Source of the DNA: Marsupella aquatica | Lineage: Eukaryota > Plantae > Marchantiophyta | Length of the DNA: 64,000 nt | Direction: 5' to 3' | Assembly: GCA_973895155.1 (NCBI GenBank) | Contig: OZ316891.1 | Span: 29,928,331-29,992,330 of the forward strand | Shown: positions 8,831-64,000 of the stretch, in pieces | How the letters are laid out: every line of letters starts with the position of its first letter | How positions within the stretch are numbered: position 1 is the stretch's first letter | Notes under the pieces: model-generated | What the model was told of the DNA's origin: nothing | The model's database searches: none | What the model saw: only the letters and a program-made list of their open reading frames with translations | Position numbers and translations under genes: made by a program

Positions 8831-8842
8831 AACTCCCCCTTG
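8831..8842 (-). other. Polypurine tract
   Basis: Minus strand AAGGGGGAGTT directly before the 3' LTR. Confidence 0.85.
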
Positions 8843-15487: not shown

Positions 15488-15500
15488 GCTCTGATTCCAC
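15488..15500 (-). other. Primer binding site (tRNA-iMet type, one mismatch)
   Basis: Minus strand TGGAATCAGAGC next to the 5' LTR, versus canonical TGGTATCAGAGC. Confidence 0.85.
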
Positions 15501-15501
15501 T

Positions 15502-15845
15502 TGTTGAGCATAGACGACATTCGCAACGGCAAGCCCATGAACCATCCAACGCACAATAGTCGACACAGAGAGATACGTGGTTCATCTCCACATGAGGCTA
15601 CGTCCACGGGAACACACAAGAGCTTTACTGCACTCTAGGCCGACCGGCCATACCAAGCATCCACAACACAAGCTCTCCCTATCTCTCAACTAGCTCCGTA
15701 ACAATGAGCCTAAGTTCCACCAGGGTCTAGCATCAGCCCTGGCTATATGCACAACAGCACTACCGCTAACATTAGCTAAGTCCTAACCCGAGTTAGACTA
15801 ATTGTGGTTAGCTCATGAGTCACAAGACTAGAGCAATATCTAACA
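15502..15845 (-). repeat. 5' LTR of the copia element
   Basis: About 99% identical to 8487-8830. Confidence 0.95.
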
Positions 15846-39256: not shown

Positions 39257-40369
39257 TCAGAGCTGAACAGTAGTCATAAATGGTTGGAAAAGGCTTAGCC
39301 CATCAGAGAAATCTCCGGAGTCTGGCACTTTCTCCCATAGAATCTCTTTTTTCTCAGTGCAAAAACCTTTGCTTTGAACGATGCTTGATCGGTAGGAAAC
39401 TGCGTTATTAGTCCATTGCACTACTGCTACAAGCTCATTACTCGCATGAACGGTAAGCGTTGCCTGCACATCCAAAAGGTGACCCTCTCCAAGGCCAACC
39501 CAGGACATGAAATGTTGCTGTCTCCATGAATTGGTGCATATGTCATAAACATGGACGCCACGGACATTCATGGAATAGAGATTCCCTTGAAAAGTGAACA
39601 CATTTCCATTTTCTACGTCAGCAGGTAGGTTTACAGCTTTCCAAGCATCGGTAGCTGGATGATAGATTTGCCAAGAGGTGGAGGGTGTTTCTCCATGTCC
39701 ACCACACAATAGAAGCTCCTCTCCGATTGTCAGAACTTGACTGAAAACTTGCCCATGATTCATGGCCTTTCTTGGGGACCACGTGTTGTTCTTGGGATCG
39801 TACATCTCTGATGAAGATGTTGGCGTTCCTTTGTCGGAGATGCCCCCAAACACATAAATCTTGCCACTTATCACACCACATCCAAAGAATCGTCTACCTT
39901 CTAGCATACTTGCAAGCTTTCTCCACTCCCTCTGCCCGGCCCGCAGATCCAGCATATAAAGACTTTTGGCGACAGCCACCTTGAAAGCCGACAGTTCACA
40001 ACGTCCTCCCAAGGCATAAATTTTCCCATCCAATGCAACTACTTGCCACGACCATGGGAGTGCAGTTTCGAAATCTGGGATCGGAGGAAGGTTACGGAAA
40101 GTCTTCTCTCTGGTGGAATACAGACAGATGCAGTACTCCCCTTGATCCTGGCGGTGAGGAATAACTACTAGTGTCTCCGTTGTCTGTGACTTAACTCTTG
40201 TATCGTGTACCAGTCCACTTCGAATTGCCTTTCGCCAACTAGTGCTTACTCCAGATAAAACTGAAAGCATTTCCCACGGCAACTTTGTAGCAATGTCGCT
40301 CAAGCTCACGTCATTTGGAAGACCAGGAAGTAGTTTGTCAAGCGATGGAAAGACATCCTTAGATTCCAT
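39257..40369 (-). CDS. F-box/kelch-repeat protein, intronless
   Basis: LLPGLPNDVSL...LSGVSTSWR F-box; kelch repeats GKIYALGG, GKIYVFGG...EMYDPKNNTW. TATA-like TATATAAG at ~40718-40724 on the minus strand. Confidence 0.92.
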   Translation of the reverse strand: MESKDVFPSLDKLLPGLPNDVSLSDIATKLPWEMLSVLSGVSTSWRKAIRSGLVHDTRVKSQTTETLVVIPHRQDQGEYCICLYSTREKTFRNLPPIPDFETALPWSWQVVALDGKIYALGGRCELSAFKVAVAKSLYMLDLRAGQREWRKLASMLEGRRFFGCGVISGKIYVFGGISDKGTPTSSSEMYDPKNNTWSPRKAMNHGQVFSQVLTIGEELLLCGGHGETPSTSWQIYHPATDAWKAVNLPADVENGNVFTFQGNLYSMNVRGVHVYDICTNSWRQQHFMSWVGLGEGHLLDVQATLTVHASNELVAVVQWTNNAVSYRSSIVQSKGFCTEKKEILWEKVPDSGDFSDGLSLFQPFMTTVQL

Positions 40370-40613
40370 AGCTACCGAATGCACAAGGAATGAAACCTGC
40401 AAGTTGATTCCCGAAGACAATTCTAGGACCGTGACTCTATTGTAGATTCTTTGCCAAAAGAACTCCGAGAAAATTCAAGTTTTTGATAGGAACAATGTCT
40501 GCAGGACGAATAACTTTCAATGGTAGACAAACAATGAGAAGAATGAGTGAAACAACAACCTTCTCGATCAGTATACTTAGGTAACTGAAGGCGATTGTGA
40601 GTGACCTAAGCAC

Positions 40614-42030: not shown

Positions 42031-45000
42031 TATGTACATTGGAGAGATCAGCCAAGAGGAGCCCCGAGAGGAGCTAACACTCCAGGCCTCATTCACACCA
42101 AATTCCACTTCTTCTCCCAGTACACACAGGAGTAAATATATAACAATTGATGTTGCCACAAGATATATGGCGCATTGTTTTCCATGCCACCTGACGTCAA
42201 TTAGTTTGTCCTCTATCTGCTTTTGTACAAATAAACTTGACAGCAGGATGCAAAACTATCCACAAAGGTTCAAATCATGTGATCGAGAGGGCCAAAAAAG
42301 TCTATTGTCTAGTACAACATTTGCATCATGCCTTTGAGCCCCGTCTTGAGTTGCAATTGTATCATGTTGGTCAAAACTACCAACTGGGAACTGATAGGTC
42401 TGGGTTGGGGTCTGGGGTTAAAATTGGAGCTTCTAACTTCCGGATCCCTGGGCCCTTAGTGTTACTAATACAGGGAGGACGTGCGAACAATGCAAGGGTA
42501 TTTTTAATGTAATGCAAACTAATTTTTATAACAGTTTTTAAAGTAGGCAACATCCCTCTATATACATTCACCACAATATTAGTAATAAGGCAAGAATCAA
42601 ATACATGTCACATAAATCTTATGCAAGGGTACCCAAAATGCCAAGTACACGCGTCACTATATGGTTGACACACATGTCATCACTTCATTTGCACACGTGT
42701 CCATATAGTAAATCAGATATTTAATTATTATCATCTTAAGGCAAGTTTGGTTTCGTTGGTCCCCTTATGGTGGAACAAATGGATTAAGGTAGACATGTTT
42801 ACCCGCATGTTTAGGAGTTAAGTGGGGAGTTGAGTAAATTTTGGGCCAGGATCTTTGGGCCCAACTTGGTTGGGAAACTGGGATTGATGGGGATCCATGG
42901 ATTAATCCCACATGTACGGACAAGATTACTTTTGAATTCCCTTGAATCAAACAGCCATGTATGAGGCCAGATGTGTTTGTGTATTGAGGGAGGGGTCTCG
43001 AGCGCTCAAACAATGTTTGTTATAGTTGGTTCAGACTTTGAAGTATTATTCCTGGATTATACATATATAGTACTAATGAAAACTAGAAGTTCAGAGGCAC
43101 TTTTGCGAACACTAAGACAAAACTGCAGGTCTATGTGTAAACTATAGGAAGAACTATAATTTTCTCTCGTCCTAATTTTGTTTATCTATATAAAATATGT
43201 ACCTTGAACATCGAGCATAACATACAAGTCCCCTATGAAAGATAAAGTTTTAACTATTTCAGTATGATATTTGTAATTCTAAAAATTCAAGGGTGTTTTC
43301 AATTCCTTGAAAAACTCTATTATAATTTATAAAAGGATAAAATTTAATAGGAAAAGTTAATATTTTTACATTAACAAGGGGATTTTTTTTGTGAACAAAA
43401 ATATTAAGAAGGGGTACACGGGGGGTATCTGTTCTCAGGGGGGTTCACTTGATATAGTAAGAGTGAGGGCCCAGGGTTCCGGATAATATAGAATAAAGTG
43501 ATATTAGTAACCCTATAGAGGGTAAGAATTGTGAGGGACCTGGGTTACTTTATACTGTCTAACAGTTTCAAATGCAGAGTGATTTTAGTAATTAATAATT
43601 GTGTTCAACTTCATTCTATTGTTCCTGGGTTGCCAAAATCTTGTGATGTAACCAGCTGGTATTACTTTAGACTGCATAAGCAAGGGCAGTTTGGATACAC
43701 TCTGGTACCCTCAAGAATGTAATTATCCATGAGTAAATTCTTATGTGCTAAACTTTGTTTAGATGCTTGTGAAACAATTATTAGTGCTTGTATGCTGAGT
43801 GATCAGGTTTCATATAAAATTGAAAGATCACAAAGGACAATAAAGTGGGGTGAAAACTTCAAGTTTTAACAGATGTGAGTTCATCTCATTGTCACTTTCT
43901 AATTAGTCAATTTGGCCCCAAAGCAGAGTGAACCACAAACAAGTTGTCGGAGAATGAATTGACAAATGTACTAATGTAAAAAACCAGTCCTCAAAGACAT
44001 AGAGATTCTTTTCCATGATGCACCATTCTATTGACCTCAATTCCAGATAACTCTATATTTGTTTTTCAAGAATAATTGGAAAATGCCCGGGAAAATGCCG
44101 TTGGTCATGTCTGAAACACGATTTCCATCCATCCACAGAACATGATAACCGTCTATTTAACACAGTCATCTAGACCCTGTTGTGTAATTGTTCACCCAGC
44201 TTTGTGACGTACGGACCCCCTTGGTCACGGGTCTGGTTTAAAATAACCATTGGACCTTTGCACATAGTTTGAAAGCTGAGGACCCAGGCCAGGGCCTCCC
44301 AATTCCCTTTCAATTCCAAGGTCCAAAGTGATGGCCATCACAACTATTGAGACCAAACATCAGCATTGGTGTGACTTACATCTTTGATATTTGGGTCTTG
44401 GGGATCCTTCTTCCACCATGGGGGAGGTACAACCAAACTTGCCATCCTTGAATCTTTTAATAAATTTATGCACAAGTCTAGTGTTCAAAATGGTTTTAGG
44501 ATATCTTATAGAATTTAAATCTCCAATTTGATATTTTCAAAAGTGGAAAACCCAACTATTTTCGGCCAATTTATTTTATTAGAGGCAACCTTCTAGGGCA
44601 CATGCAGCTTGGGGGTCAGTCTTGGTAAGGCTTGGGGGTCTCGGTAAGGCTTGGGGGTCTTACTAGCTACAAGCCTTGACCCTGCACCCTGACCCCACAT
44701 CGATCACCTGTGATGGTAATAAGTCTAGTAGACCCTTAAATTTTAGGCAGGTTATTTTTCTCCAATTTTTTCATCCTCATCAGCTTAGTTGGATAAAACG
44801 TAACAGAATCTTATCAAAATTGCATTTTATTTTAAAAGACGCTCATGCTCTTATACATAATTTTCAAGTATTCTCTTATAAAATAAAAATTGACACTATG
44901 TTTTGTAGCACGCGATGTGCCCTTTGAGTGAAAGTAAGACTCTTGAGGGTCAAGGTCTCACAAGTACACACAACGGTGCGCAAAGGTACAACCTAAATAT

Positions 45001-45157: not shown

Positions 45158-46619
45158 CTAGCCCCATGCTTGTGCGTTGCACAAAAGATGTAGAGATGAG
45201 GGAAAGATGTTATGATGAAAAAAATATGTCCATGAGAAAAAAGCAAGTTGAGGAGAGAAAAAGAAGTTGAGATGAAAAAAATATGTTGAGGTGAGGAAAG
45301 GGTGTTGAGATGAAAAATATGTCGATGAGAGAAGAAGAAGCCAAGGTGAAGAAAAGTTGTTGGGGAGAGAAATGATGGCGAAGTGAAAAAAAAGATGTAA
45401 AAATGAGGAAAATATGTTGAGGAAAGAAATGTTGAGCATGAGTGAAAGATTTCGCAGTGAGATAAAGTTGTCAAGGTGAGAGAAGATGTGGAGGAGAGAA
45501 AAAAATGTCAAGGGGAGAAAATATGTCAAGTGAGGAAAAAATGTCATGGTGAGATAAAGATGTGAATGTGAGAAAAAATGGCGAAATGACAAAAAGATGT
45601 TGAAAAACAATACATATGTAAAGATTACAAAAATATCTGCAAAAAAAACTTATTTGATAGAGGGCAAAATTTGCTCTCTCCTAGTTTTCATTTTGTAAAG
45701 TGTATTATTGTGTTTGATATGATGAGTCTTTTTATTTCTTCATTTTATTATTACCAAGGTTGTATTTTGTTTGCTCTTTGTCAAACAGTAAGTTTATTCT
45801 GATTTTATTGTTCTTTGTACAAAGGAAAAATTGAAAGATGGATAGAATAGACCTGACAATTTCACATTAATTTTTTTTAATGAAAATATATTTTTAATTA
45901 TTCTACATTCATTATTGGCTTGTTTTAAAAGGTAGCTCTGGGTAGGAAGTAGTCTAGATCAAACAAAAAAGCTTGTCATGAAAGGAATAGAGTCATGCAC
46001 GGAGGGGAGGACATGAGGGTACAATTCTACATGAATTGTTTTAATATGAAAATTATTTTCGAATTATTCTACATTCATGTTTGATGTGCATTCAAAAGGT
46101 AAATATGGGTAGTAAGTCATTTACAATAGAGCCAAAAAAGCTTGCAGTGAAGGAGTGTCATGTATGACAGACATGCACGGAGAGCTAGGAGGTACTGTAC
46201 CTTCACCAGGAGTGTAAGAAAAGTATATTTAGTTATACCTGGCAGTCAAGTGCGTGTGAGGGCAAGGAGATACGAGATACTATACCCTCACCAAGAGTGT
46301 AAGAAAAGTACCTTATGTTCATCTATTGTACCTGGCAGTCAAGTGAGTGGGAGGGCAAGGAAGGGAGCCTACCACAGTATCTGCTGATCAGTTGATGATT
46401 ATCCCCACATTAATGGCCGATGAGAGGCGTAGAAGTGTAGCAGAAAGCCAGGCCACGGAACAACAGATAGTATTGCAGGGCGTGGGAGGGTGAGCGCTGA
46501 TCGAGTGGATACCAAAAATACCCCTAAATATCTAATGGTCAAATTTGATTCCCGCCCATATTGGATTTTGTAACGGGACGAAGGATGAAAATGGCGGGAT
46601 TGCATATTATAGTTGGAGA
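45158..46619 (-). mobile_element. Non-autonomous Helitron-like element (copy 3)
   Basis: Minus strand A|TCTCCAACTATAATATGC at 46619 to TTGTGCAACGCACAAGCATGGGGCTAG|T at 45158 (hairpin plus CTAG, AT insertion site). Same minisatellite type as copies 1 and 2. Confidence 0.75.
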
Positions 46620-47399
46620 TTTGTTTGGAATTAATGAGCACAATATCAATGAAAAATTAAATACTAGATATTATAATTATCCATAGAAGTAGGAAGAGAA
46701 ACTCTTGGGGGTTTTACGGAGCCTATCAAGGCTCCCTAAAGACAAAATAGCACCAGTGAGGTGACAATCATGCTTATACAAGCCAGTAACGGCAGACAGC
46801 CAACCAACCAGACTGGCGCCTGAGCCCATTAACACACTAGTTCAATTCGGGCCATCGATCTGGAACACCGGCTCACAAACACCTGGTGCCCCCTCACTGA
46901 AAAATTCTCCTCGACTTGGAGCTCGATATCTCGATAGGCTTTTGGCGTTGCAAACTTTGTAGTTCGTTTTGGTCGATGCTGTCGGTGTTTTGTAAATGGA
47001 GGCACCTAGTGTAGGGCTTGAATCAAGGCAGCGGTTTGCGGAGACTCGTTCTTTGTTTGAGTTGGATTGACTGAGCAGATTTCAAGGACGAGATCGAAAA
47101 ATATATCGTTTTGGGTGTTGCGGCTGCTAAGGACACAACAAGGACTTGGGGAAGAGACACCGGAGGCGAATGTTAGACCTTCCGAATTAGGGTTCATGGA
47201 GGATTTTCATCAGGTCGTTGATATCAATATTCCACAGGAAAGAAGGATGGAAGATAGTGGGATGAAGTTACACTAGAGAAAGCCTGTGAGATGCACTAGT
47301 TACATCCAGACTGACAGCATTGATAGCGAATCCCTGGGGAATAGTAAGTCCGACCAACGGGACTTAATATCAACTTTTCACAACAGACACACGTACCGA

Positions 47400-49577
47400 A
47401 TGCAAGCAGCTACCATGTCTGAGAACATGACAGAATCAGGCGTCAAATCTGCGCTTCCTCCTGCGTCTCTCAATACTGAGTCACTTCTTGGCCTAGAAAC
47501 TGTTCAGAAACCAAGTCTTGAAATTGTTGAAGTATCCGAAACATGGCGTGATGACAGCCCGGATGACAGACAGTGTGCTAACGTGGGAACAGATATTAAC
47601 TCTACGGAGGGTATGAGATCACAGGATCGGGATCGAAAAAAGGAAAATCGGCGTAGAGCTTCTACCGGTAAGTCACTGTGGAGCAAGATTGTAAAAGGAT
47701 TCCAGACCGCCTCCATTTCCAAGCCGTCAATTATCGTTGGCACGGCTAGAGAAGAGCTTGAGCAGACCAAAAAGAAACGCTCTCGCTGGGTACAAGTTTT
47801 GCGTAACTTATTCCGACCTCGAAGCAAGAAGCCAAATCACCACAAGAGCTCTGAAATGTCCACATTAAGCGTCAACTATCATGTCCTTGGAAGCGAAGAG
47901 GCACTTCCCTTCCTGGAATATACTCATTTTCAGAAAGGAGATGCGGTTGGTAGCAGCCATTCTGGAAGTGCAAACTCTGACCAGTTAGCATACAATCCGC
48001 TGACTTCGAGCAACTTGCCTCCTCCTTGGATCTTACGGAAATGGAAGTTGAGAGATTCGCAAAAGCTTCTGAGAATTGACCCTGCCGAGGAACTTCTCTT
48101 CCACTGTGAGTACGCATAATCATTTGTCATTACCCGTCCTCATTTCACTTATTTGCATACATATGCTATAAGCTAAATGCATTTGCGGAACGTGGAATAT
48201 ATAGAATGTTTTTCTGTCACAATGCAAGTACCTTAGATAGGGGTCCACGACTAGATTCAGTTTTACATGGATGAAAAATGGCGGGTGCCATAATCTGTGT
48301 CGTTGAGTGCTACAGTGACAGATGACACAAGTCAGCAGTATACCTGCTCAATCAAACTCGAGAACAAGGCCAAAAGATACGTGGCGTTCAAGGTGAGGCT
48401 ACTGTCTTCACTTCCACGCAGGTGAAATTGCTAAATTAATCGATCTAAAGGCACGAGCCAGCCATTGCATCCAATTAAAGCGCGCAGACAAAACTAAACG
48501 ACAAATGACATTTTTTGTGTGCAGTTCAAGTGTACCTCTCCGGAAAATTATCTCATGAGGCCAAAGCATGGAGTCCTTGCGCCTAGCACAACAATAGAAG
48601 TGAAAGGTCAAAGTTCAATCTCTGCTCTCTGAAGTGATTAAACTCTGCTCGAGCTTTCCACTGCTTGGTCGACCCTTAACTTGTATATAGCCTTCTCTAT
48701 CCTTTTTCAGTGTAGCCAACGATCCATTTTGACCGTACCTGGAATTAGAGTTTCAAGCGAGGGTTGGAGGGATGATGATATTGTATTGTTGTTGCAAGAT
48801 TTGTGGAGAAGATCGATGCAATTTTCCTTCTATTCGTAAGAAAAATGCACTGCACTAAACCTGGTGACGGAATTATTTTAACAGTACGATGTGCCATTTC
48901 TTGCGGCTTCTTATCACCCCACCGAAGATTATTTAGATGTATAAGAACTCAATAGTTTAGGTTTGAGGATTAGTGAAGGTTTGAAGATTAGTGAAGGTTT
49001 GAAGATAGCTCAAATTTCAGTAATCCATTTGAAATCAGGTCTAAAGATTGGGGACCCTTTTTCTGCATCAGCAAGCAAGAACGATATGTTTGTTGTCGTT
49101 ACCCTTCCAATTCCAGCCAGTTTGATGAAAGAAAAGCTTTCGACGGTCAGCTCTTCCATCGTAAGTTTAACTGCTAATTTCAAACTAGTCCTAGCTGTAA
49201 CAGTATATGTATGTTTGTACATTTATTTGATTTTCCACTTTTTGATTATGTTTAGTCTAGCTTTCCGCGCGCATCCATGTGCGTTACTGCAATGGTGGCT
49301 CTCATAGTTTGATCAACTAGAATCAAATTGCATTCATTAATCTTTCTCGATCATGCTCTTCACTGCAATGAAATTTCGCATCTTTTAATCATTTATAGAA
49401 TTAAAGTGAGTCCGCACGGACACTTTCTGCCATTCTGCCAAAATCTAATCTGTTCGTATTTACACGCAGTTTGAGAGATTCCCAGATCAATGCTGCTGTG
49501 AAGCCGTATTTCATGCTGTTTTTCGTTCTCCGAGCAGTGCCAGCAATGTAAGTAGATCTACCAAACTGTGTGATTGA
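47400..49577 (+). CDS. VAP/MSP-domain protein with long N-terminal extension and no evident C-terminal TM; exons ~47400-48105, 48316-48392, 48525-48606, (possible small exon ~48884), 49039-49160, 49470-49577
   Basis: Spliced translation LLRIDPAEELLFH-LTDD...CSIKLENKAKRYVAFK-FKCTSPENYLMRPKHGVLAP matches the MSP signature. The start codon is uncertain. Confidence 0.75.
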
Positions 49578-50813
49578 TCCTTGAATGCGTAGATGTTCGA
49601 TATATATATATCTTTTATTTGAGTCAATTGATGATGGATAAAATTCATTGTGTTAACTCATGTAATACTTGAACTTATGACAGGCATTTAATATCGATCG
49701 ACAGGTCGGAATCGATGCATTCCTGGGTAATCAGAAACTCCGTTTGGCCTCAATTCCAGAACATTCCATGAGACTTTGAAGACTTGTAAATGATAGCTAA
49801 GGCGTTGGTCTGATACAAAGCAAGACGTTGATCTCGCTACATGAAATTAACTGTGGAGGTTACTCTTGACAATTACAACTCAAACACGCATCTTGGAGTA
49901 TTTCTTTTGATTCATGTAAGGATAGTCGATCTGTTTTAATTGTTCAACCACCAAGATCAAAACAACTTTGAGTATAGGTTAAATTGTGGCTGGCTGAAAG
50001 TTCGAATACGTGGACATAGATCGAGGTCAAAACTCTGTCTTTATATAGAGAGAAGGTGTGCGTCCCGATATCTACCTGGAAATGTGGGATAGCTTTTGTC
50101 TGCTAAGCTAGCGCGCAGTGTGTAAATTAATGATACATGTTAATCAAGAGGTGTTCAAGAAGTGCTAGTGATTATTCTTCACAATCAACTGTCCACATCT
50201 AACTGTACAAACTTTTTGATAAACGGAGGGCTTCTCCGCAGCCCAAAAGTGTCACCTGTCCAAAACACAAAAGGAAACCCTAGCCTGCCTCGAGGATTGA
50301 CAGGTCACTAGCTAGTAGTACTTTTAGGTGCAGGATTCGTTGGTAGCCAAATGACTGGGGTCGTTACTAGGAATTGTGATAACTCCAGTCATTAAGAGGA
50401 CTTTTAAGGGCGCGCCGCCAGTTGTAAGAATTGTAGTCAGCCTGCAGTTACTCCTCAGGGTTTGTTCCTAGTCAAATGACTGGGGTGATTACTAGGACCT
50501 TCCTGCTCGAACTGTATAAATGGCGTGAGCTTGACCTTAAAGCTCCATTCCACTGAGGACTTCTTACGTACTCACCATCTATTCATCCATCTTGCTAGTA
50601 GTTGTGAATAATTGTTTTGACTGGAAGCCGCATTTGGGACTGGACATTAGATGCATTAGTTTTCACTTCTTTCAAGGCCATCGAGGGTTTGCCCTTATTG
50701 CTTCGTGAAGGAGAAAAGGTTTTCAGCTACAGAAGAGCTGTACCATTTTCCTGTTGTCGATACCTTCAGCTTGTTTGTCAGAAGTTGTGGCCAGGACCCT
50801 AGTAGCAGCAAGT

Positions 50814-51692
50814 ATGGCAAGCAGATGGAGCTCCTGCTGGTCAAATCTTCTGCAATTCATCGCAGATGAATGTTCTTACTCATGTGGTGTTGCGGAGAAT
50901 GCCAAACCATCAGCTCTGCGCTTAAATCAGCTGCATCAACTTCTCTTGTCTCAAGAAGCACATGACCTTCAGACTCCTCCTGAGACCGGAACACAGATGC
51001 AGCTACAACAAAGTCCAACCTGGTCTACTACAAGGCAGCCTGAAATCGACTCAGTGTCAGGCAGAGATCAGGGAGCATGCCTTGAGGGGAAACTACTTGC
51101 TGGTGAGCAACATCATCGTCGTGTAACAGATGTTTCATCTGAGAGAACACAGTCGGGAACACCTTGCAAGTCAGCAGAAGAAGGGCAGAGCCGTATGGTC
51201 ACCATACAGAAACCCACTGAAGCGGGCTATAATTGTGAAAATTGGGCAGAAAGGGAGACGAAACTTATATTAGAACTCCTGTCCATGAAGAGAAATCTAC
51301 TGGATAGCCAGCACGAAGCGAGTAAAGTTTCCCCAGAAATTGCTTCCTTGAGACTAGAAATGGCCATGTACTTAAGCAGGGAAACTTTAAATGCTCCAGG
51401 CAGCCGTTTTGAGGGTGATGTTTGGCAGCTAAAGCAGGTTCTGGAAGATGAACCGAACACGAAGAAGGACGTAGCTAACAAGAACGAGTGCAAGATTTGC
51501 TATGACTCGTGTCGAGATACCCTTATTCTTCCGTGTTTCCACTACCAGTACTGCAATGTTTGCCTACAAAAGGAGCGCCAAAAGAGGAAGGTGAGGAACC
51601 GGGCCAGGGCTGGGTCGAGGAAGAGAAAATTTCGTTGCCCATATTGTAGAAGCTCAGTTAAAGCGCTGCCTTGCTGGAGTATACCAAATTGA
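50814..51692 (+). CDS. C-terminal RING-HC (C3HC4) protein, putative E3 ligase
   Basis: CKICYD...LILPCFHYQYCNVC...CPYCR; intronless ORF; TATA-like TATAAAT at ~50515. Confidence 0.85.
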   Translation: MASRWSSCWSNLLQFIADECSYSCGVAENAKPSALRLNQLHQLLLSQEAHDLQTPPETGTQMQLQQSPTWSTTRQPEIDSVSGRDQGACLEGKLLAGEQHHRRVTDVSSERTQSGTPCKSAEEGQSRMVTIQKPTEAGYNCENWAERETKLILELLSMKRNLLDSQHEASKVSPEIASLRLEMAMYLSRETLNAPGSRFEGDVWQLKQVLEDEPNTKKDVANKNECKICYDSCRDTLILPCFHYQYCNVCLQKERQKRKVRNRARAGSRKRKFRCPYCRSSVKALPCWSIPN

Positions 51693-52789: not shown

Positions 52790-53420
52790 GACATTGGCTA
52801 GAAATGTTTTTGACTTTCAAACATGAGGTCACCACATTGGCTAGACATTAACACTTTAAAAAATGGGGCCATCCCATTGGTCGGATGTAGTGAAGACTTG
52901 TTAGCAAGGACAAATATGGGGCCACACCATTGGTTGGATATAGCAAAAGATTGAGCATAGTCAGATATGGGTCACCACTGGCCAAAATTTAACATTTTCA
53001 AAAATGGGGTCACCTTATTGGTCAGGTGTACAGTGAAATACTGATATCTTGGCACTCCAGTACGTGACATGTTTTTAAACTTTCAAAATCAGGCTGGAAT
53101 TTAATTTTCACTCTTTCCAAATGGCCGGGGACAACTTGAACACTCTTGAAAACCAGGCTGGCCTCCTCATTGGCCGGACATTTGAATACTCATAAATGGG
53201 CCAACCCATTGGCTGAACACTATGAAATGTGGAGCCACCTTATTGGCCGGACATTTCATACTCTGAAAAGTGGAGCCACCTCATTGGCCGGACGTTTCAT
53301 ACTCTGAAAAGTGGTTCACCTCATTGGTGGGACATTTCACTCTCACAAATGCAGCCACCTCATTGGTCGAACATTTCACACTCTAAAAAATTGGCTGGAC
53401 TTTCAACACTATCAAAAATG
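52790..53420. repeat. Array of ~40-bp degenerate repeats (CATTGGCCGGACATTTCA...GGAGCCACCT), TE-subterminal-like
   Basis: More than 10 CATTGG(C/T)(C/T)GGAC-type cores, most regular at 53164-53400. Confidence 0.7.
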
Positions 53421-55713
53421 GTTAGCACGGGCCCATTAAAAAACATCAATACTTGCACCCAGCTGGCATGGCATTTGACCTGGCATTTTCCCAATGGAGC
53501 CCCATTGATGAATACATTAAGAATGAAATTGTCTCGGGGAAATTGTTTCAAGACTTACAATAAAACTATCTTGCTCATTTAATAAACAAATTAAGCAATT
53601 TTTCCCTGGGCCCTCAGCTTACAAAATAACGAAACACACGTCCAAACGTTCGATGGGTATTAAATATCAATTCCGCAAATAATATTATAACACCATTCTA
53701 ACCAACAAGGTCCTTATATATCGTCGTAACAGATTAGAAGAGGTGAAGGGTTTTATTAAAGGTGTCCCAAAGTTAATCAATTGAAGGGCCATTTTAATAT
53801 GCAATGACACGCGTCACGTGCTCATTGGACCACGTGTCAACTGACCAGTGGTTTAGGGTTTACGGGTTCTGGGGGAAGGGTGGTCAAAGTGTCGTGTTCC
53901 CCCCTTTCCCCCCTACTTTGTAGGAGCCGTCCGATGTAGGATGCCCTAGATCGGACGGCCAGGCGAATGTTGGGGTCCAAGATCAGGGCAAGACGCTCGG
54001 GCAGACGGTGCGAGAGGGTGGGGAGAGGAGGGGCGGGAGGAGGGGTCTCCGGAGAGGTTTGAGCCGGGGCCACACTTTTGGGCTTTTGGACTTTTGGACT
54101 TTTTTGCCAGTTTCTCCCTCCCGCAGTTTCTTTGCTTGCCTGTTCGCCCCGCCGTTTGCTCATTTCTTTGTCATCTCGCCCCGCATCTCGCGTGATCTTG
54201 AGTTGGGGTTTGGGCGAAAGCGGGAGGCGAAAGTGTTTCACATTCGGTCCCGCGTTCGGTTGAACTCTCGGGATTTCTTTGGGGCTTTGTGAACATGTTT
54301 GTGCCCCGGTCTGTGCACTCAATCTCTTTCGGGACTCTCTTGCATTCGAGCTTGCATTCCTGTCCCGATCCCGGTCCCGATTCCCATGTCCATTTCGTGA
54401 TCGAGTAATTTTGTAAGCTGATTGCGAGCCAATTGCGAGTTGGGCGGGGAGCTGAGGCTGCATTTTGACCCCCGTTTCGACCTTGGCCATTGCAGCGGGC
54501 ATTGCAGACGGGGTTGCGGGCTGCATTTCGACCTTGGCCAAGTTGAACCCCGGTTTTTCTCACCAATCTTGAGACCAATCGAAGCTTGGGGGACGGGCAG
54601 TGGGATCAACTGGCGGGGAAGGTAATTCCTGAGGTTATTTTTATATACGGTACCAATCCTGCTTCCTACTGTTTGGAATGAGCGCCCGAATGAGCGAAAC
54701 CATGGGCGAGAGATTCTGCCAGTGATTTGAGCTGAGGCACAAGTGCATTTTGTTGTTGATGCCTCCGGGGCTGCCTCTCACCCGGCCTCTTGTCTTGAAC
54801 ATTTCGGACTGTGCTTTTCTGTTGCTGGCTTTTCAGGCGGAGACTAATGTCGCTTTTTGTTTTGTAGGTTGGTGGTGGCTATAGTGAACACCGGCCCCGG
54901 CACCGACAGGAATCCCACAGAAAATTAGGGCTACGGTTACACGGTCTCGGGCACGGTCCACGGCAAGAAGGGACATTAAGTTTGCGTCTATGGCAATTTG
55001 TGTTGGTTTGTGTTTGTGCCCGTGTTTGTGACACTTTCTATTGCTTTCCTCGCGCTCTGCTTGTTCCTGCGTGCTACAAAACCTATGTCTAAAGCATTTT
55101 CCTTCATGCATGTGTTTAAATTGGTCATCGTAGCCTGGGATTTGGTTGTACTGGTTTAGTCACTTCGTTTTGTGGTTGCCTATTTGTTCTAAAGCATCTG
55201 AATTTGCAGGGCCTTTCCCGGGGGTTTAAAGAAGAAGGGGTTGGCGCCTTCTACCTTCATCACAGTATTCATTAAAACTGGAAATTTAAAAGTCCAAATT
55301 GTGATCCTCAAATTTACATTCTTGTCTCTAAAAAGTCCATTAATTTTGCTCCAAATAAACAATTTTTCAAGACTAAATATACACTCTTTTTGGTTTAAAA
55401 TTACACTTTTGCACTCCAAATTTGATTTTAATCAATTAATCATAATACAGAAATTATTAATATTAATTGTATTTGAAATTAAATAGATAAGTGACAAACA
55501 TGTATCATTTGGTCAAAAACTCATGATTAAATTCAAAGTGAGATTAATCATCTCATTTATCATAACATATATTCAAGGTTGGCTAGCCATAATGTCGATC
55601 CTACTCCAATGGTCAAGCTAGTGTAAAGTCCAAAGTAGTTCTATGACCTGTGAAATAGAAAAATGATTGCATGACTCCAATCTTGTGTCCTACAATGTAC
55701 AGAAACATAATGA

Positions 55714-58700
55714 TTAATCATCTAAAATTTCAAATTCTATGCCTCCATGAATATGTCTACATGACTGATTTGAACAAGTGAGTCGCTCTCCATTTGGGTC
55801 ATATAGTCTGTCACGAGTACAAGTGTCTTTGGGATAACGGTTTTTAAACTTAGAGGTGAGATCCCTAGTCTTTAGAACTTCCCAGACAAATCGGCGAGGA
55901 TTTTCTCTGAAGGGACCTGCATAAGACTCGCCCAAACAGTTGTTGACCACATCTTTCATATCATCTTCAGTCAGGTTCTCAAATGTAGGGTAGGATTGTA
56001 CCATATCCCTCACTTCCCAACATATCTCATCTCCAGTGACATCCAAGATGGTATACTCAATCTTGGAACGCCAAATCTTACTTCCCCACTTATGGGAAAG
56101 TAAATCATAGATTGCAGCATTACTTTCATGGTCATCATTTATATTAACAAATGACCAAAGTGGATTGTTGACAAATATATATTGTCGGATGTCATAAGCC
56201 TTCCACAATTTTCTAAGGAATGGCCAAAGTATCTCTGGTAGAAAAGTGTCACTCTCGGCAATGTGTGAGAAGGGAGTTGGGAACAAACCACTATACTGTG
56301 GATTTGCAAAAGCCTTCACTGGAGAGTCATCAATAAGTAGAGTGTTTGTATCATCATACTTGTCTCCAAAACGACTCCACACCACACGCAAATCCTTCAA
56401 CATAATATTTGCTTTCCCATCTGCTACGTCCGGTCTTTTTATGCCAGTATCAAAAGCATCTTCTTGTGTGAAAACAAATTTAAATTGCCTCCGCTCCTCT
56501 TCTTTGAAAATCAAATTCATCATTTCATTAGTTCTTGGCCTCCCCGCACAAGTCCACAATGCGACATCAAAACCTTTGAAAGCCACCTCCAAAAATTGGT
56601 GCAACCCTGGCCTTTCCACGTACATGAAATTGAATCCACCCCGTCTCCCCCAATGCACACCCCGCACAGTTGTTGTAGATCTTAACGGTCCCGAGCTTTT
56701 TGTTTTGACGCAATCCCAACAAATTTTGTTCAGGTCCAAAATCAAGAGTTTTCTTCTTATATCAGAGTGCAATTTAGGAGTGAAATCTGCAAAGATCCAA
56801 ATGAATCAAAATTATATCTAAAAGATATAAAAGAAGAACTTAGGGTCGAACCTGGATCGACCCGACCTAATGGGGAAAACAAACATATCATTTTTGAATG
56901 TCAAAGCATTTTGATATATCAATGTAGAAGTACCTTGCTCAAATGCTTTGTCTTGGACCAGGGTACCGCTTGCTGAAGGTAGACCAATAATATCCTTCGA
57001 TGGAAGAGATGCTATGACAAAACTTTGGTCTGTCCATATATGATTTCCAAACATAATATTTTAGATTATTGTGAAAAATAGAATAACGAAACCATAATAT
57101 TAACCTCCACTACTAAATGACCCATATTCATCTATCATTTTATCACCTAGATCACTTTGGATATCAGAATTGACGCCAACAGGAAGCTGCTCCACCAACG
57201 TTGGCGGCGCAAACACTGGACTCAATCTCAATTTGTCTATTATGTAATCAGGTTTGACCATTAACTTAGGCACATCCTCCAACGTTTCTTTCAATCCAAC
57301 TTTAGGTCCATTTCTCCAAATGAAATGAGTTGCATGACGGACTGTCTTCATATATCCTGTTCTACCTATCTCAGATCCAGACTTTTGAGACAAGCGTAAT
57401 ATTATGGGGCTTCCGCTTGACATCCTTGTGAAGACCAATTTATTCCCTGACGAACAAAATTGAGGAGACTTGGAACAAGTTGAAGCACCTGCCTCTTAAG
57501 CTTCAACATTTGTTGTCTCTCCAAGTGGAAGGTTGTCTTCAATCGCTTCTGCAATACCAACTTGTAGGTCCGTGGTGGGTGTAGTGGCCCCAATATTCTG
57601 CCAACCTGCATCCAATGTGCACGATACCTGCGGTCTCTCGGGATGCAATTTTGATACTTCAGGGTTGAGAGGATTTGAGGGAGGGTCGCTCTCAGGGCGA
57701 CCCGACATCACTATGTCGAGTTGAGGTAGCCCTTCAACACCGTAGGTAGTAATGCCAACCATTTCTGTTGCTCGAGCATCCCAATTTCCGCCAAAATCCT
57801 CCTCTACCATAGGACTTGAACCTCCATCATCATGCTGCAACTCACCATCCTCAAGGTCAACTCGCTGAGGGCCCGGTTGGGGGTTGTCCATAGGCCCGCA
57901 AAGAACACTTAGATGAGCTCTCCTAGGACCATGTACTCCCATCCGCTCTTTCATAAGGGAGGGAATCCTGTTGCACAAAACCCTTGCATATGCTTGGGTG
58001 AAATGGTGTTCTTGCAAAGTGTCTGAATAGACAAAACAATCTTGGTATGCCAACAAGGCCACCTTCAAAACCTGCCCTCCTGAAAAAAAATCGAGGACAG
58101 TCTCCCCCTCACCGGAAAAACATTCAATAATATTTTTGAGCATGTGTCGGGGCTTGGCATGCGGATTGACAAATCCTCCTTGACTTCCGACCATCTCAAA
58201 CATTGGAGCTTGCCGCGCAATAAATCTGCCATATCAAATGCGGGAGACTGCTCCTCTGTCTCATTCTCTTTTCCCTTGCTTTTCTCTTGCTTGTCAGCCT
58301 TCACTTCAATATTGAAATCACAGTCAACATAGGGGTGAAAACTAAATTTTGAATTGAACTCTGGCTTAAACAATTGATTCCAATCAAAATTGTCTTCACC
58401 TGTAATTCCAGCAAAAATGACCTGCTCAATCGCTCCTGTAAAAATTAAGCCCTGCGGATTTGGGCGATCTTCCTGATCATAACTCCCGTATTCAACATGG
58501 ATGGCCAAATGCTTTTCATGTCCTAATTTCCTTAGGGCACTTAAGATGTTGGCTGGAAGTGGCCCTGGATGAGTAGTCATGACAACTACAATGGTTGTAT
58601 TCCTTGGCAACTCCACAATATATTGGAGCAATACAAAAATTTCCGAATCTATCCATTCATGTTGTCGTGCCCTAATAAAATCAACAATTGCAAGTGGACA

Positions 58701-61700
58701 CATTGGCGTCGCCTCTTCCAATAACTCTGGCGTGGTTGTCTTCATTAGATTCTCACTGAAGAACGTCAAGAAAGGCTCTGTTTGTGTGCGCCCAACTCCA
58801 CCAAATTGTTTGCAGTACAACCCGTCTAATCTCACCATTAGACTTTGAGGGAAAGCCTCCTTCACAATGTTCTTCCTTAATAAACTGCTAAGGTAGACCT
58901 CCCCAGCTGCTCTTCGCAATTTTGTCAGCTCAAGTTGAGATCCCAAGGCCGGCATGATGTTGACCACCGAAGCCCACGATGTCCCCCCGGGAAACTTCTC
59001 CTTGTGCTTCTCAACAAAGTACTCAACAATGACTTGCTTCAATTTAGTCATTACCTTGATGGTATGAGCCATATCTGGCATTGACACCAGATCCATCTTG
59101 TTGGAGGCATCTTTCTTGAGAAGTGCTTTCTTCTCATAAACCGCGGTCAATATATCAATGATATCCGTAGAACTGATCTCCCCTTCAAAACATCTAAAAA
59201 GAGTTGGTGTGACCAGCTTTAGTGGCCGCGGCCCACCATACTCTCCTGCCCCGCCAGGGAGCTTCCCTGCCAACCAATCCCAACAAACAGTTTGCCATAA
59301 ATGGAAAAGCTTATCCTCAGCAAAGAGCAACCAAAAAATGGCTTTCAAGCTCGACTTTCCCATTGTTATCTTTGCGAGGGCAAACCAATCCTGCATTTAC
59401 ATTCATCCACCAAAAAACATGTTAGATGTTTAAACTTAGAAACTTCAACTTCTCTGCCTCGCCCCTAGAGCGAGGCGAAGAAAATGACAAAGCCATATGA
59501 AAATGGTTGGGGCAATCATTGTATTCATCATTCAATTTCATTTGGGTCGCTCTAAGAGCGAGGCAAAATTAAACTACAGTTCCAACTAATGAAAATGTTT
59601 ACCTGGTATTTCTGGTTGTCTGTACTTTGGTTTGTTCCAATTCCTGGACGCGGTGGTTTCCCACATTCATCAAATTGCCTTCTCGCATGAACAACTGTCT
59701 CTAGAAAACAAGACTTAAACTGCATGGTCTGATTTACTGCATTTGAAAGGCTCGAGTGCTCGACCAAAATTGCCCTTGGAGTGAGGTCTGATAAGATCCT
59801 CGCTTTCCGATATTGGAGTTTGCTAGCAAGATCAGTTAGCTTGGCATCCTTGTCTGCCCACCCTTGAATCCATTGTGCAGCCTTTGCGGAATGTTGCCCA
59901 CTGATTGCAAGAAATTGTATCTCTTGCTTCTTAACACCAAACAAAAATTGCTTTCGATCGCGTGCGGTATTGTCAAAATGTAACAACTGCTTAGTGCGCT
60001 CTAGAAATGGAATCAAATCTGCAACATGTGGTTCCTGGCCAGGGTTTTTCATCATTGATTTTGCTATCTCTAAGGCATGAACCTGGTTGAACATCCGATA
60101 CACAAAAACTGTAGTAGGCGGAAGAATACTTTTAACCGGGATTTCAAAAACCTCCCTGATTCCAAAAGTGTAGTATTGCTCGATGTTCCGCAAAGCTTTC
60201 TGCCCCTCCAATACATCTCGTTCCTCTGGTGCATCTATTGGGCATGTATCATCCTCCGGATCCAAGACCAACCTTGCTTTTGACGCTGACACGGGCTTTG
60301 ATTTTCCAATCTTGGCCTTCTTCTTGGGCTTCTTGTCGGAGTCCTTATCTTTCTTCTTCAACGCCGCCTTTTTTCCTCTAGTACTTCCTTCACTCCTTGG
60401 CTCTCTTTGTTTTCTCTTCTTCTGTGTTTCAGCCGACGTCATTTCTTTGGCCTTCATCTTCATCTTCCCCTTACCTCGATGCTTTTCTTCCTTCTTCTTT
60501 TGAGTTGAAATCCACTTCATGCAAGCATCTTTGTCAAACTCATCAGAGAAAATAAAACTCTTATCAATTGCTTGCTCATATGAAAAGCGTGTTGTTTCAA
60601 TCATCCTCTGGACAACCCATGTGTTAGGAAGATCTATAAGGTCCGGATGATCATGCATGTACCGCTTCACAGAGAGGAATCCAAAGACAACATCAACCCC
60701 ACTCAATTTGAATCTTCCATGCCTCTCAAGAACATCCTCTGCAGTGAACCCATCTGGAAGAAATCCCATTGAACAAATACTAGCCTCCGAGCGTGCTATC
60801 CACTCCACGTTGATAATTGACGAGTACATCTTGATTGGCAAGTAAAGTCTCATCCACTGAGATCTTTCTCTGGATTCAATAATGATTGTAACATTGCGGT
60901 TATCACTGCAATTTACAAGGACCACAGGGCCCAACGCAACTATCTTCTTGTCGTTCATTGTCTCAGCAGTGGTTGCCTTGATACAAATCATCGACAAGTC
61001 ATTCTCCATGATCCCTACTTCAAGTGCCCACGAAAATCCTGCCTTATCTTGTCCAGGGAAGATAAAGTCCTTGACATCCTCGGCCATAATATTTAACTCT
61101 GGGGATCCAAGTTGTTCTCCTGGAAAAACAAATTGAAACAACAAACATTAAAGCAAGAGATCTTCTGTGTTGCCTCGCCCCTAGAGCGAGCTGGAGACAA
61201 GGTCTGCATCAACAAACATGTGGGTTGGGTCGCTCCTGGAGTGACCCTAGGAAAACTTAAATCAAGGTCCAACCAACAACAAATTTGGATCGCTCCTGGA
61301 GCGACCCTAGGAAAACTTAAATCAAGATCCAACCGACAACAAAGTTGGGTCGCTCGACCCTAGGAAAACTTAAATCAAGGTCCAACCAACAACAAATTTG
61401 GGTCGCTCCTGGAGCAACCCTAGGAAAACTTAAATCAAGGTCCAACCGACAACAAAGTTGGGTCGCTCCTGGAGCGACCCTTGGAAAACTTAAATCAAGG
61501 TCCAACCAACAACAAATTTGGGTCGCTCCAGGAGCGACCCTAGGAAAACTTAAATCAAGGTCCAACCAACAACAAAGTTGGGTCGCTCCTGGAGCGACCC
61601 TAGGAAAACTTAAATCAACGTCCAACCAACAACAAAGTTGGGTCGCTCCTGGAGCGACCCTAGGAAAACTTAAATCAACGTCCAACCAACAACAAAGTTG

Positions 61701-62066
61701 GGTCGCTCCTGGAGCGACCCTAGGAAAACTTAAATCAACGTCCAACCAACAACAAAGTTGGGTCGCTCCTGGAGCGACCCTAGGAAAACTTAAATCAACG
61801 TCCAACCAATAACAACGACAAATCTTAGGCAAGATAGGGTCGCTCTTAGAGCGACCCTTCAAAGACTAACTTGCATCAATTGTTGAATCATACTTACGTG
61901 GAACTGTGATATGAAATCCCCTTGAGGCGGCCAAAGCGGATTCCACCGACATCTTTAGTAAAGTGTCTTGAGAATCATACTCAAAGATTTTACTAGAATC
62001 AAAGTTCAGGGACTGCCCAGAACTAGAAGTGCTAGTAGAATCATCAGAACTAGAGGAAGTGGCCAT
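55714..62066 (-). pseudogene. Multidomain gene: ParB/Srx-like + degenerate beta-class N4/N6 DNA methyltransferase + FCP1/NIF HAD phosphatase-like + CCCH-like finger; exons 62066-61898, 61119-59603, 59390-57105, 57029-56934, 56786-55714; frameshift ~58222, stop 57496-57498
   Basis: All four introns are GT-AG and phase-compatible. With 1 nt restored the exons total 5142 nt (1714 codons). Motifs: FLAISGQHSAKAA (ParB-like), NPHAKPRHMLKNIIECFSGEGETVLDFFSGG (MTase motifs X/I), KLLILDLNK, RPGLHQFL and NTLLIDDSP (FCP1/NIF). Confidence 0.72.
61221..61812. repeat. 60-bp tandem array (10 units), each with the palindrome GGGTCGCTCC-W-GGAGCGACCC, inside intron 1 of the ParB-MTase gene
   Basis: Palindromes at 61227, 61287, 61347 (7-bp deletion), 61400, 61460, 61520, 61580, 61640, 61700, 61760, plus a variant at 61837. 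Confidence 0.95.
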
Positions 62067-62353
62067 TGAAAAATGCCTCACAAACGTTTAGATGACACGT
62101 GGCAGCCTAGTATACAAGAACGCCTAGAGCTAGACCACACCACGGAGCGAGGCTACAGAGCAAGGAAAAAAATATACTATGAGCAAGGCAAAATCAACAG
62201 AGCGAGGCAAGAAAATCTACTATGAGCAAGGCAAGAGGGAGGAGGGAAACCAGGGCAGCTGGGCAAGAAGACAATGAAGGAGGAGATGGATGCAAGAAGA
62301 CAATGAGGCAAATGAGGTAATGTCTTTGCCTTTTGCCTTCCTATACCCTCACT

Positions 62354-62421
62354 GCCACGGCCGATCCTACGCCACGGCCGTTCCTACGCCACGACCGATC
62401 GTACGCCATGGCCAATCGTAC
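62354..62421. repeat. 17-bp tandem repeat x4 (GCCACGGCCGATCCTAC)
   Basis: Four consecutive imperfect units. Confidence 0.8.
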
Positions 62422-63145
62422 GCGACCTTACGCAACCCAGCCACTTGCTCCCTTCCATGCGCCTGTGAACTCGCAACCCTCATAATGACCTAGCTGTACG
62501 GGTATCCATAGATTTTGAAAAATGATGCACGGTCGTACGGGTGTCCACAGAATGCCGATCAGAGTAATCAGACTTTCGGCCTCTTGATGTTGTGAACCCC
62601 TTCAGGACAAACTTGGCTAAAGCTTGCTCACAAATGGTATAAAGCTCTACAGTTCCAATCATTTCTCTCTTTTGTATGGCGCGTGCGTTTCTGGTCATTG
62701 CTCACTCTCGGTCTCGCCCTTCGGCCCTTGTCTATCTTGCTTCTGTTCGGTGACTGATTCGACTGACTTGGACATTTATGGTTACAAGAGTTCGTGCAAG
62801 GAAAGTCCTGTTTCAAGTATATTGCATTAGTTTTGGTGTCCTTGGTTGGCGACAGGTCTTCTATAGTCCTTAAGAGAGGTATTACTTCATCTACCATTCT
62901 CTTAATTTCTTCTCTATGATATCCACCAAATATTTGGCCCTAGCTTTATCTTAATATATGGACCTAACTAAGCCCTAGATAATGTAGGGTTCCTAACGAC
63001 ACACTCGTCTACCCACACGTCTACACACTTCAATGGTCTAATTCAGCTTAATCATTCCCCTGATTTATTCATTTCCATATTTTCTCTTTTCCTTCACAAT
63101 TCTTGCTTCTCCAGGATTGTGCTCGTCTTTTCTTGCTCTCCCCTT

Positions 63146-63580
63146 GCCTCGCTCCAAGAGCGTCATGCCCTTGCCTCGCTCCACGAGCGTCATACACTTA
63201 CCTTTCATCAGGAGCATCCTGCCCTTTCTTTTCTCCAAGGGCATCCGCTCTCCATTGCCTCGCCATCAGAGCGTCCCTCAACCGCCTCGCCCCTAGAGCG
63301 ACCCTCCATCGCCTAGCCCCTAGAGCGACCCTCATTCACCTTGCCCCTAGAGCGTCTCTCCATCGCCTCGCCCCTAGAGCGACCCTCATTCACCTCGCCC
63401 CTAGAGCGACCCTCCATCGCCTCGCCTCTAGAGCGACCCTCCATCGCCTCGCCCCTAGAGCGACCCTCCATCGCCTCGCCCCTAGAGCGACCCTCCATCG
63501 CTTCGCCCCTAGAGCGTCCCTCAATCGCCTCGCCCCTAGAGCGTCGCAACCTTGCCTCGCTCCAAGAGCGTCCCTGACCT
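63146..63580. repeat. 27-bp tandem array (~16 units, consensus GCCTCGCCCCTAGAGCGACCCTCCATC)
   Basis: 12 regular units from 63257 plus about 4 degenerate units from 63146. The core is the same TCGC...GAGCGA palindrome as in the 60-bp array. Confidence 0.92.
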
Positions 63581-64000
63581 TAGAATCCTGTTGTGTAAAG
63601 CCAATACACATAAACTCCCAAATATTTTTTTCCTTTAAATAGAATTCAAATGTTTAGATCTAATATTGTAATATCTAGAGTAGTGCTTATCAGTGTGCAC
63701 ATCAGCTGAACAATTTTTAAATGTTTTTGGATGCAGAGATCCTTTCGCTACCATGAGTAAATTTATGCGAGGGGATGAAGTTTCATAATTGATAATTGAT
63801 GGTTTTGAAGTGGCAATTGGGACCATCCAAAAGGTTGATCCCAAAGACACTATACACAATATTTGTCTTGGGAAAAATCGAATTGGGGTCCTTATCGAGA
63901 GGTGTCTTGAAACATCTTGTCCACTACCATTTCCATCCAAAACATCATCAAGCCTAGGTGATGCAGTTGACTCATGTGTGATCTGGGATTCTTCCTTGGC

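Follow-up and report, generated by a model that had tools for sequence, protein, structure and literature searches.

Accessory proteins that bring a ParB-like domain together with a DNA methylase are known from transposons of algae. The Ectocarpus element Sola1-1_Ec32 encodes one of 1,104 amino acids (aa) with a ParB-like domain and an N4C/N6A methyltransferase (PMC12477816), and Plavaka elements of the red alga Bostrychia combine a methylase-SET gene with a ParB-oxygenase gene that neighbours tandem inverted repeats (10.1101/2025.02.11.637652). Phage ParB-terminase loci were put forward by Iyer et al. as donors of eukaryotic adenine methylases, together with a ParB-helix-turn-helix (HTH) fusion in chlorophytes (PMC4738411). 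Here we describe a spliced minus-strand gene at 55714..62066 of a 64,000-nucleotide (nt) stretch of the liverwort Marsupella aquatica (contig OZ316891.1, positions 29,928,331 to 29,992,330; hereafter the window), which is a land-plant variant of these algal proteins. Four traits set the variant apart: its N-terminus is PH-like, its catalytic motif is rebuilt, an FCP1-like/CCCH tail is probable, and there is a defined candidate binding site, a palindrome repeated along the element to which the gene belongs. In our judgement the odds are about even that a large DNA transposon carries the gene as an accessory gene and that its product, by binding the transposon's own palindromes, counters silencing or regulates the element. 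An original prediction, made from the window's letters alone, had known the architecture from no described gene; given the ParB and N4C/N6A-methylase accessory protein of Sola1-1_Ec32, an undescribed architecture is not supported, and our literature search found no land-plant or FCP1-linked description of the architecture, although supplements or subscription papers could hold one.

The minus strand holds seven open reading frame (ORF) pieces of the gene in a program-made ORF list, and these join into five exons separated by four introns with GT-AG ends and matched phase (Table 1), giving a spliced frame of 1,712 codons that is interrupted twice, by a stop at 57498-57496 and by a break of the frame near 58214. 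The seven pieces, the four introns, a single frame of ~1,710 aa and a read-through stop had all been foreseen and are recovered here, as are the Ser-rich start, the Lys-rich tract and the C-x14-C-x4-C-x3-H tail, each seen in the sequence; the 1-nt frameshift of the original prediction corresponds to a real break whose size was wrong, the window copy having a 2-nt insertion. Homologues back intron 2, the frame break and the read-through of the stop. The Calypogeia protein P0011 and proteins of Riccia continue across intron 2, which lies at the same position in L001, a metagenome locus 46% identical. The exon structure is shown as far as the end of exon 3, and introns 3 and 4 are proposed on GT-AG ends, phase and base composition; the frame stays open with or without the 96-nt exon 4.

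The AlphaFold model of exon 2 has a mean predicted local distance difference test score (pLDDT) of 87. Its ParB region (model residues 315-465) aligned in VIA with PadC (Z 8.0, root-mean-square deviation (rmsd) 3.1 over 98), KorB (7.8), ParB-N (7.6), a serine kinase (6.9) and sulfiredoxin (Srx; 5.9), and all seven VIA rows at Z >=5 have the ParB/Srx fold. Foldseek likewise placed Noc, ParB and Srx on top (best E 1.7e-3, for Noc). Over 65 covering rows of the homologue alignment the motif SGQHS is kept at G in 62, Q in 59, S in 59 and H in all 65, where it is invariant. With AlphaFold, VIA and Foldseek in agreement, a ParB/Srx nucleotide-binding fold is predicted where the original prediction had placed a ParB/Srx-like domain, at SGQHS; Pfam, NCBIfam and PHROGs returned no match to the domain. 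In the ESM Atlas the ParB part has fungal DUF3723 among its neighbours, along with unnamed clusters of cnidarians and basidiomycetes, DUF3723 being its nearest named feature neighbour (score 0.96, with the Pfam family on 31% of members, a lead only); Pfam gave no sequence match to DUF3723 in the gene. DUF3723 is a conserved cargo of fungal Starships (10.1101/2021.12.13.472469), which makes for a likeness in giant mobile-element cargo that goes no further than this nearness of features. Bacterial ParB, Noc, KorB and PadC and the sulfiredoxins share the predicted fold (Z 5.9-8.0), and a short palindrome lies nearby here too; by contrast, the liverwort protein has SGQHS, no ParA and a helical domain unmatched to HTH, and is eukaryotic and spliced.

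Because the window copy is broken in the methylase part, we modelled the homologue P0095 (901 aa, 50% identical), folded along with 10 other rows, for which the overall mean pLDDT was 49 including a long linker. P0095 residues 209-470 aligned in VIA with MboII (Z 10.4, rmsd 3.9 over 163), CcrM (10.3), RsrI (9.6), PvuII (8.6) and bdelloid N4CMT (8.0), and Foldseek matched the domain to RsrI at E 2.3e-4. In this model the catalytic half precedes the S-adenosylmethionine (SAM)-binding half, the permuted Rossmann order, so that the permuted beta-class methyltransferase of the original prediction was found as a predicted fold. Pfam N6_N4_Mtase (PF01555) covered 36 aa (E 5.9e-5) with a score of 23.5 against a cutoff of 26.7; of the three families named for a Pfam check, NIF was confirmed (E 1.7e-16), the methylase remained below cutoff and ParB had no match. 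The wider claim of a prokaryote-type ParB/Srx fold and a permuted methylase in one spliced protein is borne out by the predicted folds and by the Riccia proteins P0063 and P0073, in which both parts occur together, P0063 missing the motif IV segment of the methylase.

A motif scan for (D/N/S)PP(Y/F/W/L) found none in eight homologues and none in four window frames. We placed the motif IV site by aligned structure ranges, as in a profile comparison with four phage methylases the alignment was confined to the SAM segment (31 columns); at the site so inferred the window reads DFIR (58682), the majority contigs and P0095 read DFSR, other relatives DFAR and DLIA, and L001 DFGK. The SAM-binding motif I of such enzymes is FxGxG; its position here reads DFFSGG, which aligns to DFFAGSG of RsrI and DFTxG of phage enzymes and has a shorter glycine loop. 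TSPPY marks Marchantia DN4MT1 (10.1101/2021.02.12.428880), mutation of SPPY abolishes bdelloid N4CMT activity (PMC8885841), and both forms of this N4C motif are absent in the gene. The domain resembles M.RsrI, M.MboII, CcrM, M.PvuII, bdelloid N4CMT and Marchantia DN4MT1 in its permuted fold and its HPxxKP...VLDFF sequence, but has no DPPY, SPPY or TSPPY, and is part of a multi-domain, repeat-borne protein, unlike a host enzyme that stands alone or is fused to a chromodomain. From its motifs the methylase is probably not a standard enzyme, and since neither the window nor any of the eight homologues scanned has the catalytic motif, a DNA-modifying role, one of the two offered in the original prediction, is unsupported. 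A distinctly unlikely alternative is that the methylase is active with a non-canonical chemistry and writes N4-methylcytosine or N6-methyladenine on the element's palindromes. The complete beta-class fold, the conserved HP/NP-x-x-KP and DFFSGG motifs, a motif IV Asp kept in the window, P0095, P0067, P0073 and L001, and a precedent proposal (PMC12477816) speak for it, whereas no member checked has PP(Y/F), N4CMT depends on SPPY (PMC8885841), the Asp is followed by differing residues (FSR, FAR, LIA, FGK) and P0063 is without the segment.

Set against Sola1-1_Ec32 (PMC12477816), with which the gene is likened by domain description, both join a ParB-like domain and an amino-methyltransferase in one protein of a large repeated element for which self-binding is proposed, but the present gene belongs to a land plant and has an extra PH-like N-terminus, no catalytic motif and an FCP1-like/CCCH exon downstream. 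Red-algal Plavaka (EnSpm) elements, with accessory genes PAG2 and PAG3, likewise have a ParB-like gene (PAG3) by tandem inverted-repeat arrays and a PF01555 methylase in the cassette, and the candidate CATCA terminus described below would fit PlavakaB; in the algal elements, ParB with a 2-oxoglutarate oxygenase and methylase with SET form separate genes, and here the ParB and methylase folds are fused (10.1101/2025.02.11.637652). As in the algal elements, inverted-repeat tandem arrays (60 bp and 27 bp) with one palindrome adjoin the gene.

With <=2 mismatches allowed, the 8,740 nt to the right of 55260 contain 26 copies of the palindrome TCGCTC-N3-GAGCGA, and the other 55,260 nt of the window four, each of these with 2 mismatches. 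The palindrome is the common core of the two otherwise unlike arrays: most units of the 10 x 60-bp array in intron 1 carry GGGTCGCTC-N3-GAGCGACCC (Tandem Repeats Finder (TRF), motif scan). Outside the arrays, introns 1 and 2 and exon 3 hold five matches, compared with a mean of 0.18 and a maximum of 2 in 200 base shuffles, and intron 4 has a more degenerate copy. The original prediction lacked this palindrome, as well as the PH-like domain and the lesion-free state of other copies. That a symmetric site is repeated along an element which itself encodes a ParB-fold protein suggests self-binding by a dimer. In addition, L001 has a different 12-bp palindrome (784-795) in the homologous intron of this 46%-identical relative, which may be chance and was not used, and a 17-bp array of four copies (62354-62423) upstream of the ATG is polymorphic among element copies.

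A protein that binds such palindromes could also serve transposition itself. CACTA TnpA is a transposition co-factor of this kind, and a similar role here, in which the protein would bind palindromes to join element ends or load transposase with no part in silencing, is unlikely in our estimate. It would suit the clustering of palindromes in arrays confined to the element, the candidate end, which fits CMCT-clade termini, and a ParB fold apt for DNA bridging. However, the arrays lie in intron 1 and upstream, 6-8 kb off the candidate left end, with no motif within 2.4 kb of that end, and synapsis has no need of methylase-like and phosphatase-like domains.

To compare element copies, we used contigs of four DNA runs (X1-X4, two studies). 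High-depth contigs of all four runs lack the 2-nt insertion at 58214, and those of three runs do not have the stop at 57498, the fourth run being without cover there; P0095 is open across both frame break and stop. Both lesions are private damage of the window copy, and intact copies exist elsewhere. On long clean contigs the median depth of the element was 301 (X1), 654 (X2) and 1,446 (X4), compared with 15.5, 58 and 50 on neighbouring single-copy host DNA, that is, element/host ratios of 19, 11 and 29, in which contig depth is a rough proxy and no copy number. The element contigs are ~99% identical to the window. Among the differences listed, which lie at or right of 55819, C>T/G>A changes in the window copy make up 17 of 28, with a CG or CHG context for 15 of the 17, and the coding differences divide into 19 non-synonymous and seven synonymous ones. 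Such a bias together with the 19:7 ratio is the pattern expected for a methylated, neutrally decaying insertion. The element is multi-copy and young, and the window copy has decayed after insertion.

Two further observations concern the copies. In X2 and X3, which carry a second organism label, the listed host contigs (46700-51500) are ~4-9% off the window, whereas the longest element contigs (55281-64000) differ by ~1%, much of it private to the window copy; selection, introgression or recent transfer are possible causes of this gap, and the comparison is biased by the shortness of contigs. In X3, a contig of depth 71 has 62735 linked to 55597 through 28 other letters. This joint roughly brackets the whole gene and may be a duplication, a circle or a derivative.

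Toward the left, depth drops from ~314 to ~63-163 at ~55260, where the sequence reads CATCACAG; over 55229-55310 the estimated depth in X1 is in excess, ~700-830. Transposons of the CMCT clade (Plavaka/EnSpm) have CA..TG termini with a target duplication of 2-3 bp, and a DDE transposase with C(2)C and H(3-4)H motifs. PlavakaB termini are CATCA..TGATG (PMC12730594) and plant CACTA termini CMCWR (PMC3227409). The CATCA at the edge fits the former, as a hint only, given that five matching letters may arise by chance within ~50 nt. At the right, the open frame that leaves the window is possibly a second element gene; a contig of depth 286 continues there for 906 nt past 64000, and Pfam, NCBIfam and PHROG scans gave no family match to the frame. 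The original prediction had called the gene probable cargo of a large transposon; the element that carries it is multi-copy with a sharp left edge, and no transposase was seen in the window. We consider carriage by a large DNA transposon likely. It is improbable that the repeat is instead a recently amplified host gene family, a segmental duplication or an endogenous virus fragment. Such an origin would agree with the window's lack of a transposase, with the canonical introns and with an upstream frame free of family matches; it is opposed by the sharp depth drop at ~55260, next to unrelated repeats and single-copy genes, by the many divergent homologues (eight named from one Riccia genome) and methylation-type decay, and by the viral contigs, where none of 31 pattern matches was a relative.

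HMMER with exon 2 as query gave 94 representatives at E <=0.001, of which 91 were aligned and three short ones excluded. Ten of 30 homologues looked up carry species names: eight are from Riccia sorocarpa, one from Calypogeia fissa and one from Diphasiastrum complanatum, so that the family spans liverworts and a lycophyte. A metagenome scan yielded two loci (1.2-1.6 kb) from 82 pattern matches, both too short to reveal their gene surroundings, and a word-index search, which is weak, found no longer protein for the ParB region among 333 candidates.

Exon 5 matches Pfam NIF (PF03031) with 60.8 bits against a cutoff of 21.8, as the original prediction of an FCP1/NIF HAD domain had held; its nearest PDB match is UBLCP1 (E 1.6e-7), and HAD_IIID1 (E 7.2e-10) is below cutoff. 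It contains DLNK at motif I (56736), LLIDDS (56340) and C-x14-C-x4-C-x3-H (55821-55747). The catalytic motif of FCP1/SCP phosphatases is DxDx(T/V); the window copy reads DLNKIC in its place. DLNK may still be a private change of the window copy, as the comparison with the covering X1 contig takes in six of its seven differences. From its motifs the HAD domain is probably a weak or dead phosphatase. It shares with FCP1, SCP and UBLCP1 the NIF match above cutoff and LLIDDS, but has DLNK as motif I, neither BRCT nor UBL, and an atypical CCCH finger following.

Whether this exon belongs to the ParB-methylase protein depends on introns 3 and 4. We rather favour fusion on the sequence at hand. One X1 contig covers the ParB-methylase and FCP1 parts, within the same element. 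The alternative, possible though doubtful, is a pair of genes, the first of which encodes the ParB-methylase protein and stops after 1,324 codons with the TAA at 57102-57100, the second being a captured gene made of the FCP1-like/CCCH exons, with its start at ATG 57054 or elsewhere; this reading is compatible with the self-binding mechanism and independent of the other alternatives. P0095, P0096 and P0097 (one cluster, three contigs) end in EYGSFTT, two codons short of the window's unspliced stop, NIF is present in 0/34 homologues scanned, no matching protein of 624-2000 aa was found for the FCP1 exon among 1,591 candidates (word-index search, weak evidence), and the intron 3 acceptor is weak, all of which favours two genes. 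Truncated homologues are, however, expected, because genes called on genomic contigs are cut off where their first intron begins. Moreover, only 46 nt lie between the stop and ATG 57054, the intron 3 interval is intron-like (77% AT, 44% T), phase 1 is common to the donor and both acceptors, and the first in-frame Met of the FCP1 frame lies beyond motif I.

We propose that a dimer would recognise TCGCTC-N3-GAGCGA, possibly via the helical domain, and that the ParB fold might bind a nucleotide and use the arrays as the place from which the protein loads or spreads. Since the catalytic motif is missing, binding or shielding of DNA is a likelier role for the methylase fold than DNA modification; the fold may bind DNA or SAM without catalysis, and shield or read sites that contain CG. 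If they are spliced on, the FCP1-like domain and the CCCH finger could tie the complex to RNA polymerase II or to the transcript. The net outcome would be element anti-silencing or self-regulation, by which the element is kept expressed or mobile.

Several observations weigh against this proposal, besides the homologue ends and scans that favour two genes and the roughness of depth as a proxy. DNA binding, dimerisation, nucleotide binding and anti-silencing are all predictions. CTPase clamps of the ParB type carry an arginine-rich Box II, GxRR, have an HTH domain behind the nucleotide-binding domain, and bind CTP and a palindrome; here Box II is not matched, the family motif being SGQHS. The helical domain gave no clear fold match, with no HTH among the top 50 structure rows, and the methylase model is that of a homologue, built from 11 sequences, with pLDDT of 30-77 in the domain. 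As DFSR is kept in both the majority copies and P0095, the chemistry may have been rebuilt and not lost. X1 contigs show no differences on host DNA and may come from the window's own sample. Finally, no transposase, second end or target-site duplication was found within the 8.7 kb of element in the window; the element continues past the window's end at 64000, which leaves any transposase and the far end out of view. A bolder form of the proposal is unlikely: young giant transposons of land plants would encode one ~1,700-aa protein, intact in most of ~20 copies, that loads like a ParB clamp onto the palindromes of its element and whose rebuilt methylase fold and captured FCP1-like CTD-phosphatase domain steer RNA polymerase II and chromatin there, making a parS/ParB-derived anti-silencing system tied to host transcription.

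The remaining parts of the protein are less defined (Table 1). The N-terminal PH-like domain (pLDDT ~90, model residues 12-161) met many PH/PTB/FERM-C rows at Z 4-4.8, and it is covered together with the ParB domain in 17 of 91 homologues. The Lys-rich linker likely serves nuclear localisation or non-specific DNA binding, judging by composition; a PDB sequence search with a 92-row profile matched only Lys-rich Nop58-type tails and was rejected. The helical domain (pLDDT ~75-96 in the P0095 model) is conserved in P0011, P0067, P0073 and L001. The small domain at the end of exon 3 had low pLDDT and no clear fold match, and exon 3 gave no usable ESM Atlas match.

Table 1. Features of the gene and its element in the window (strand as +, - or undirected).
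Feature	Position	Strand	Basis
Exon 1, ATG and Ser-rich start, proposed	61898..62066	-	sequence and frame
Intron 1, 778 nt, holds the 10 x 60-bp array (61224-61815)	61120..61897	-	GT-AG, TRF, motif scan
Exon 2	59603..61119	-	
N-terminal domain, PH/PTB-like fold, weak match	60638..61087	-	predicted structure
Lys-rich linker, low confidence, 26 K in 70 aa	60290..60499	-	sequence; pLDDT <50 in part
ParB/sulfiredoxin-fold domain, predicted, SGQHS at 59902	59726..60178	-	predicted structure
Intron 2, 212 nt, two palindromes (59459, 59547)	59391..59602	-	GT-AG, homologues, motif scan
Exon 3	57105..59390	-	
All-helical domain after the ParB fold, candidate DNA-binding from position only	58805..59390	-	P0095 model
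Permuted beta-class amino-methyltransferase fold, predicted	57960..58748	-	coordinates mapped from homologue P0095
Premature TAA, private to the window copy	57496..57498	-	covering contigs and P0095
Conserved small domain (131 aa), end of exon 3	57105..57495	-	43% identical to P0095 773-901, E 4e-34
Intron 3, 75 nt, proposed	57030..57104	-	GT-AG, 77% AT, weak acceptor
Exon 4, 96 nt, proposed, phase 1-1, skippable	56934..57029	-	56% AT, exon-like composition
Intron 4, 147 nt, proposed, degenerate palindrome at 56846	56787..56933	-	GT-AG, 67% AT, 42% T
Exon 5, FCP1/NIF-type HAD domain, helical region, C-x14-C-x4-C-x3-H tail, stop	55714..56786	-	Pfam NIF
27-bp tandem arrays upstream of the gene, imperfect palindrome units, 12 motif matches	63141..63575	undirected	TRF
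Candidate left terminus, CATCA at 55258, CACAG at 55261	55258..55310	+	depth change
Open frame, 3' end, leaves the window, possibly a second element gene	63635..64000	-	ORF list, depth

The window is plant nuclear DNA. It holds a RING gene (Pfam match) and ORFs that by eye we take to be chalcone-synthase-like, Pumilio-like, kelch and copia-type. Adjoining the element on its left is another multi-copy repeat (53500-55257), more diverged, with GC-rich frames and no Pfam match, preceded by a degenerate 41-bp array with CCACCTCATTGGCCG units (52813-53389). A copia-type long terminal repeat element (8485-15799) has broken pol-like frames and 300-nt direct repeats, 99% identical and spaced 7,015 nt, and is apparently interrupted by another repeat. 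Two degenerate 19-bp arrays (35742-36457 and 45183-45648) lie in opposite orientation 9.3 kb apart, the right one at very high depth with a sharp edge at 45157, and are possibly the ends of another element or a miniature inverted-repeat transposable element family. A kelch-type gene (39257-40474), whose contigs are multi-copy and diverged in 4/4 runs, suggests an expanded family, and a very high-depth repeat (42100-43900; ~650-770 in X1) has no long ORF.

The locus gives a candidate protein with intact copies, a 15-21-bp candidate binding site and a liverwort/lycophyte family, and with these three assets the idea becomes testable in a transformable plant. If the proposed self-binding is correct, a eukaryotic transposon would have taken a bacterial ParB/parS-like pair into its own service and, provided that the splice holds, coupled it to a host carboxy-terminal-domain phosphatase domain.

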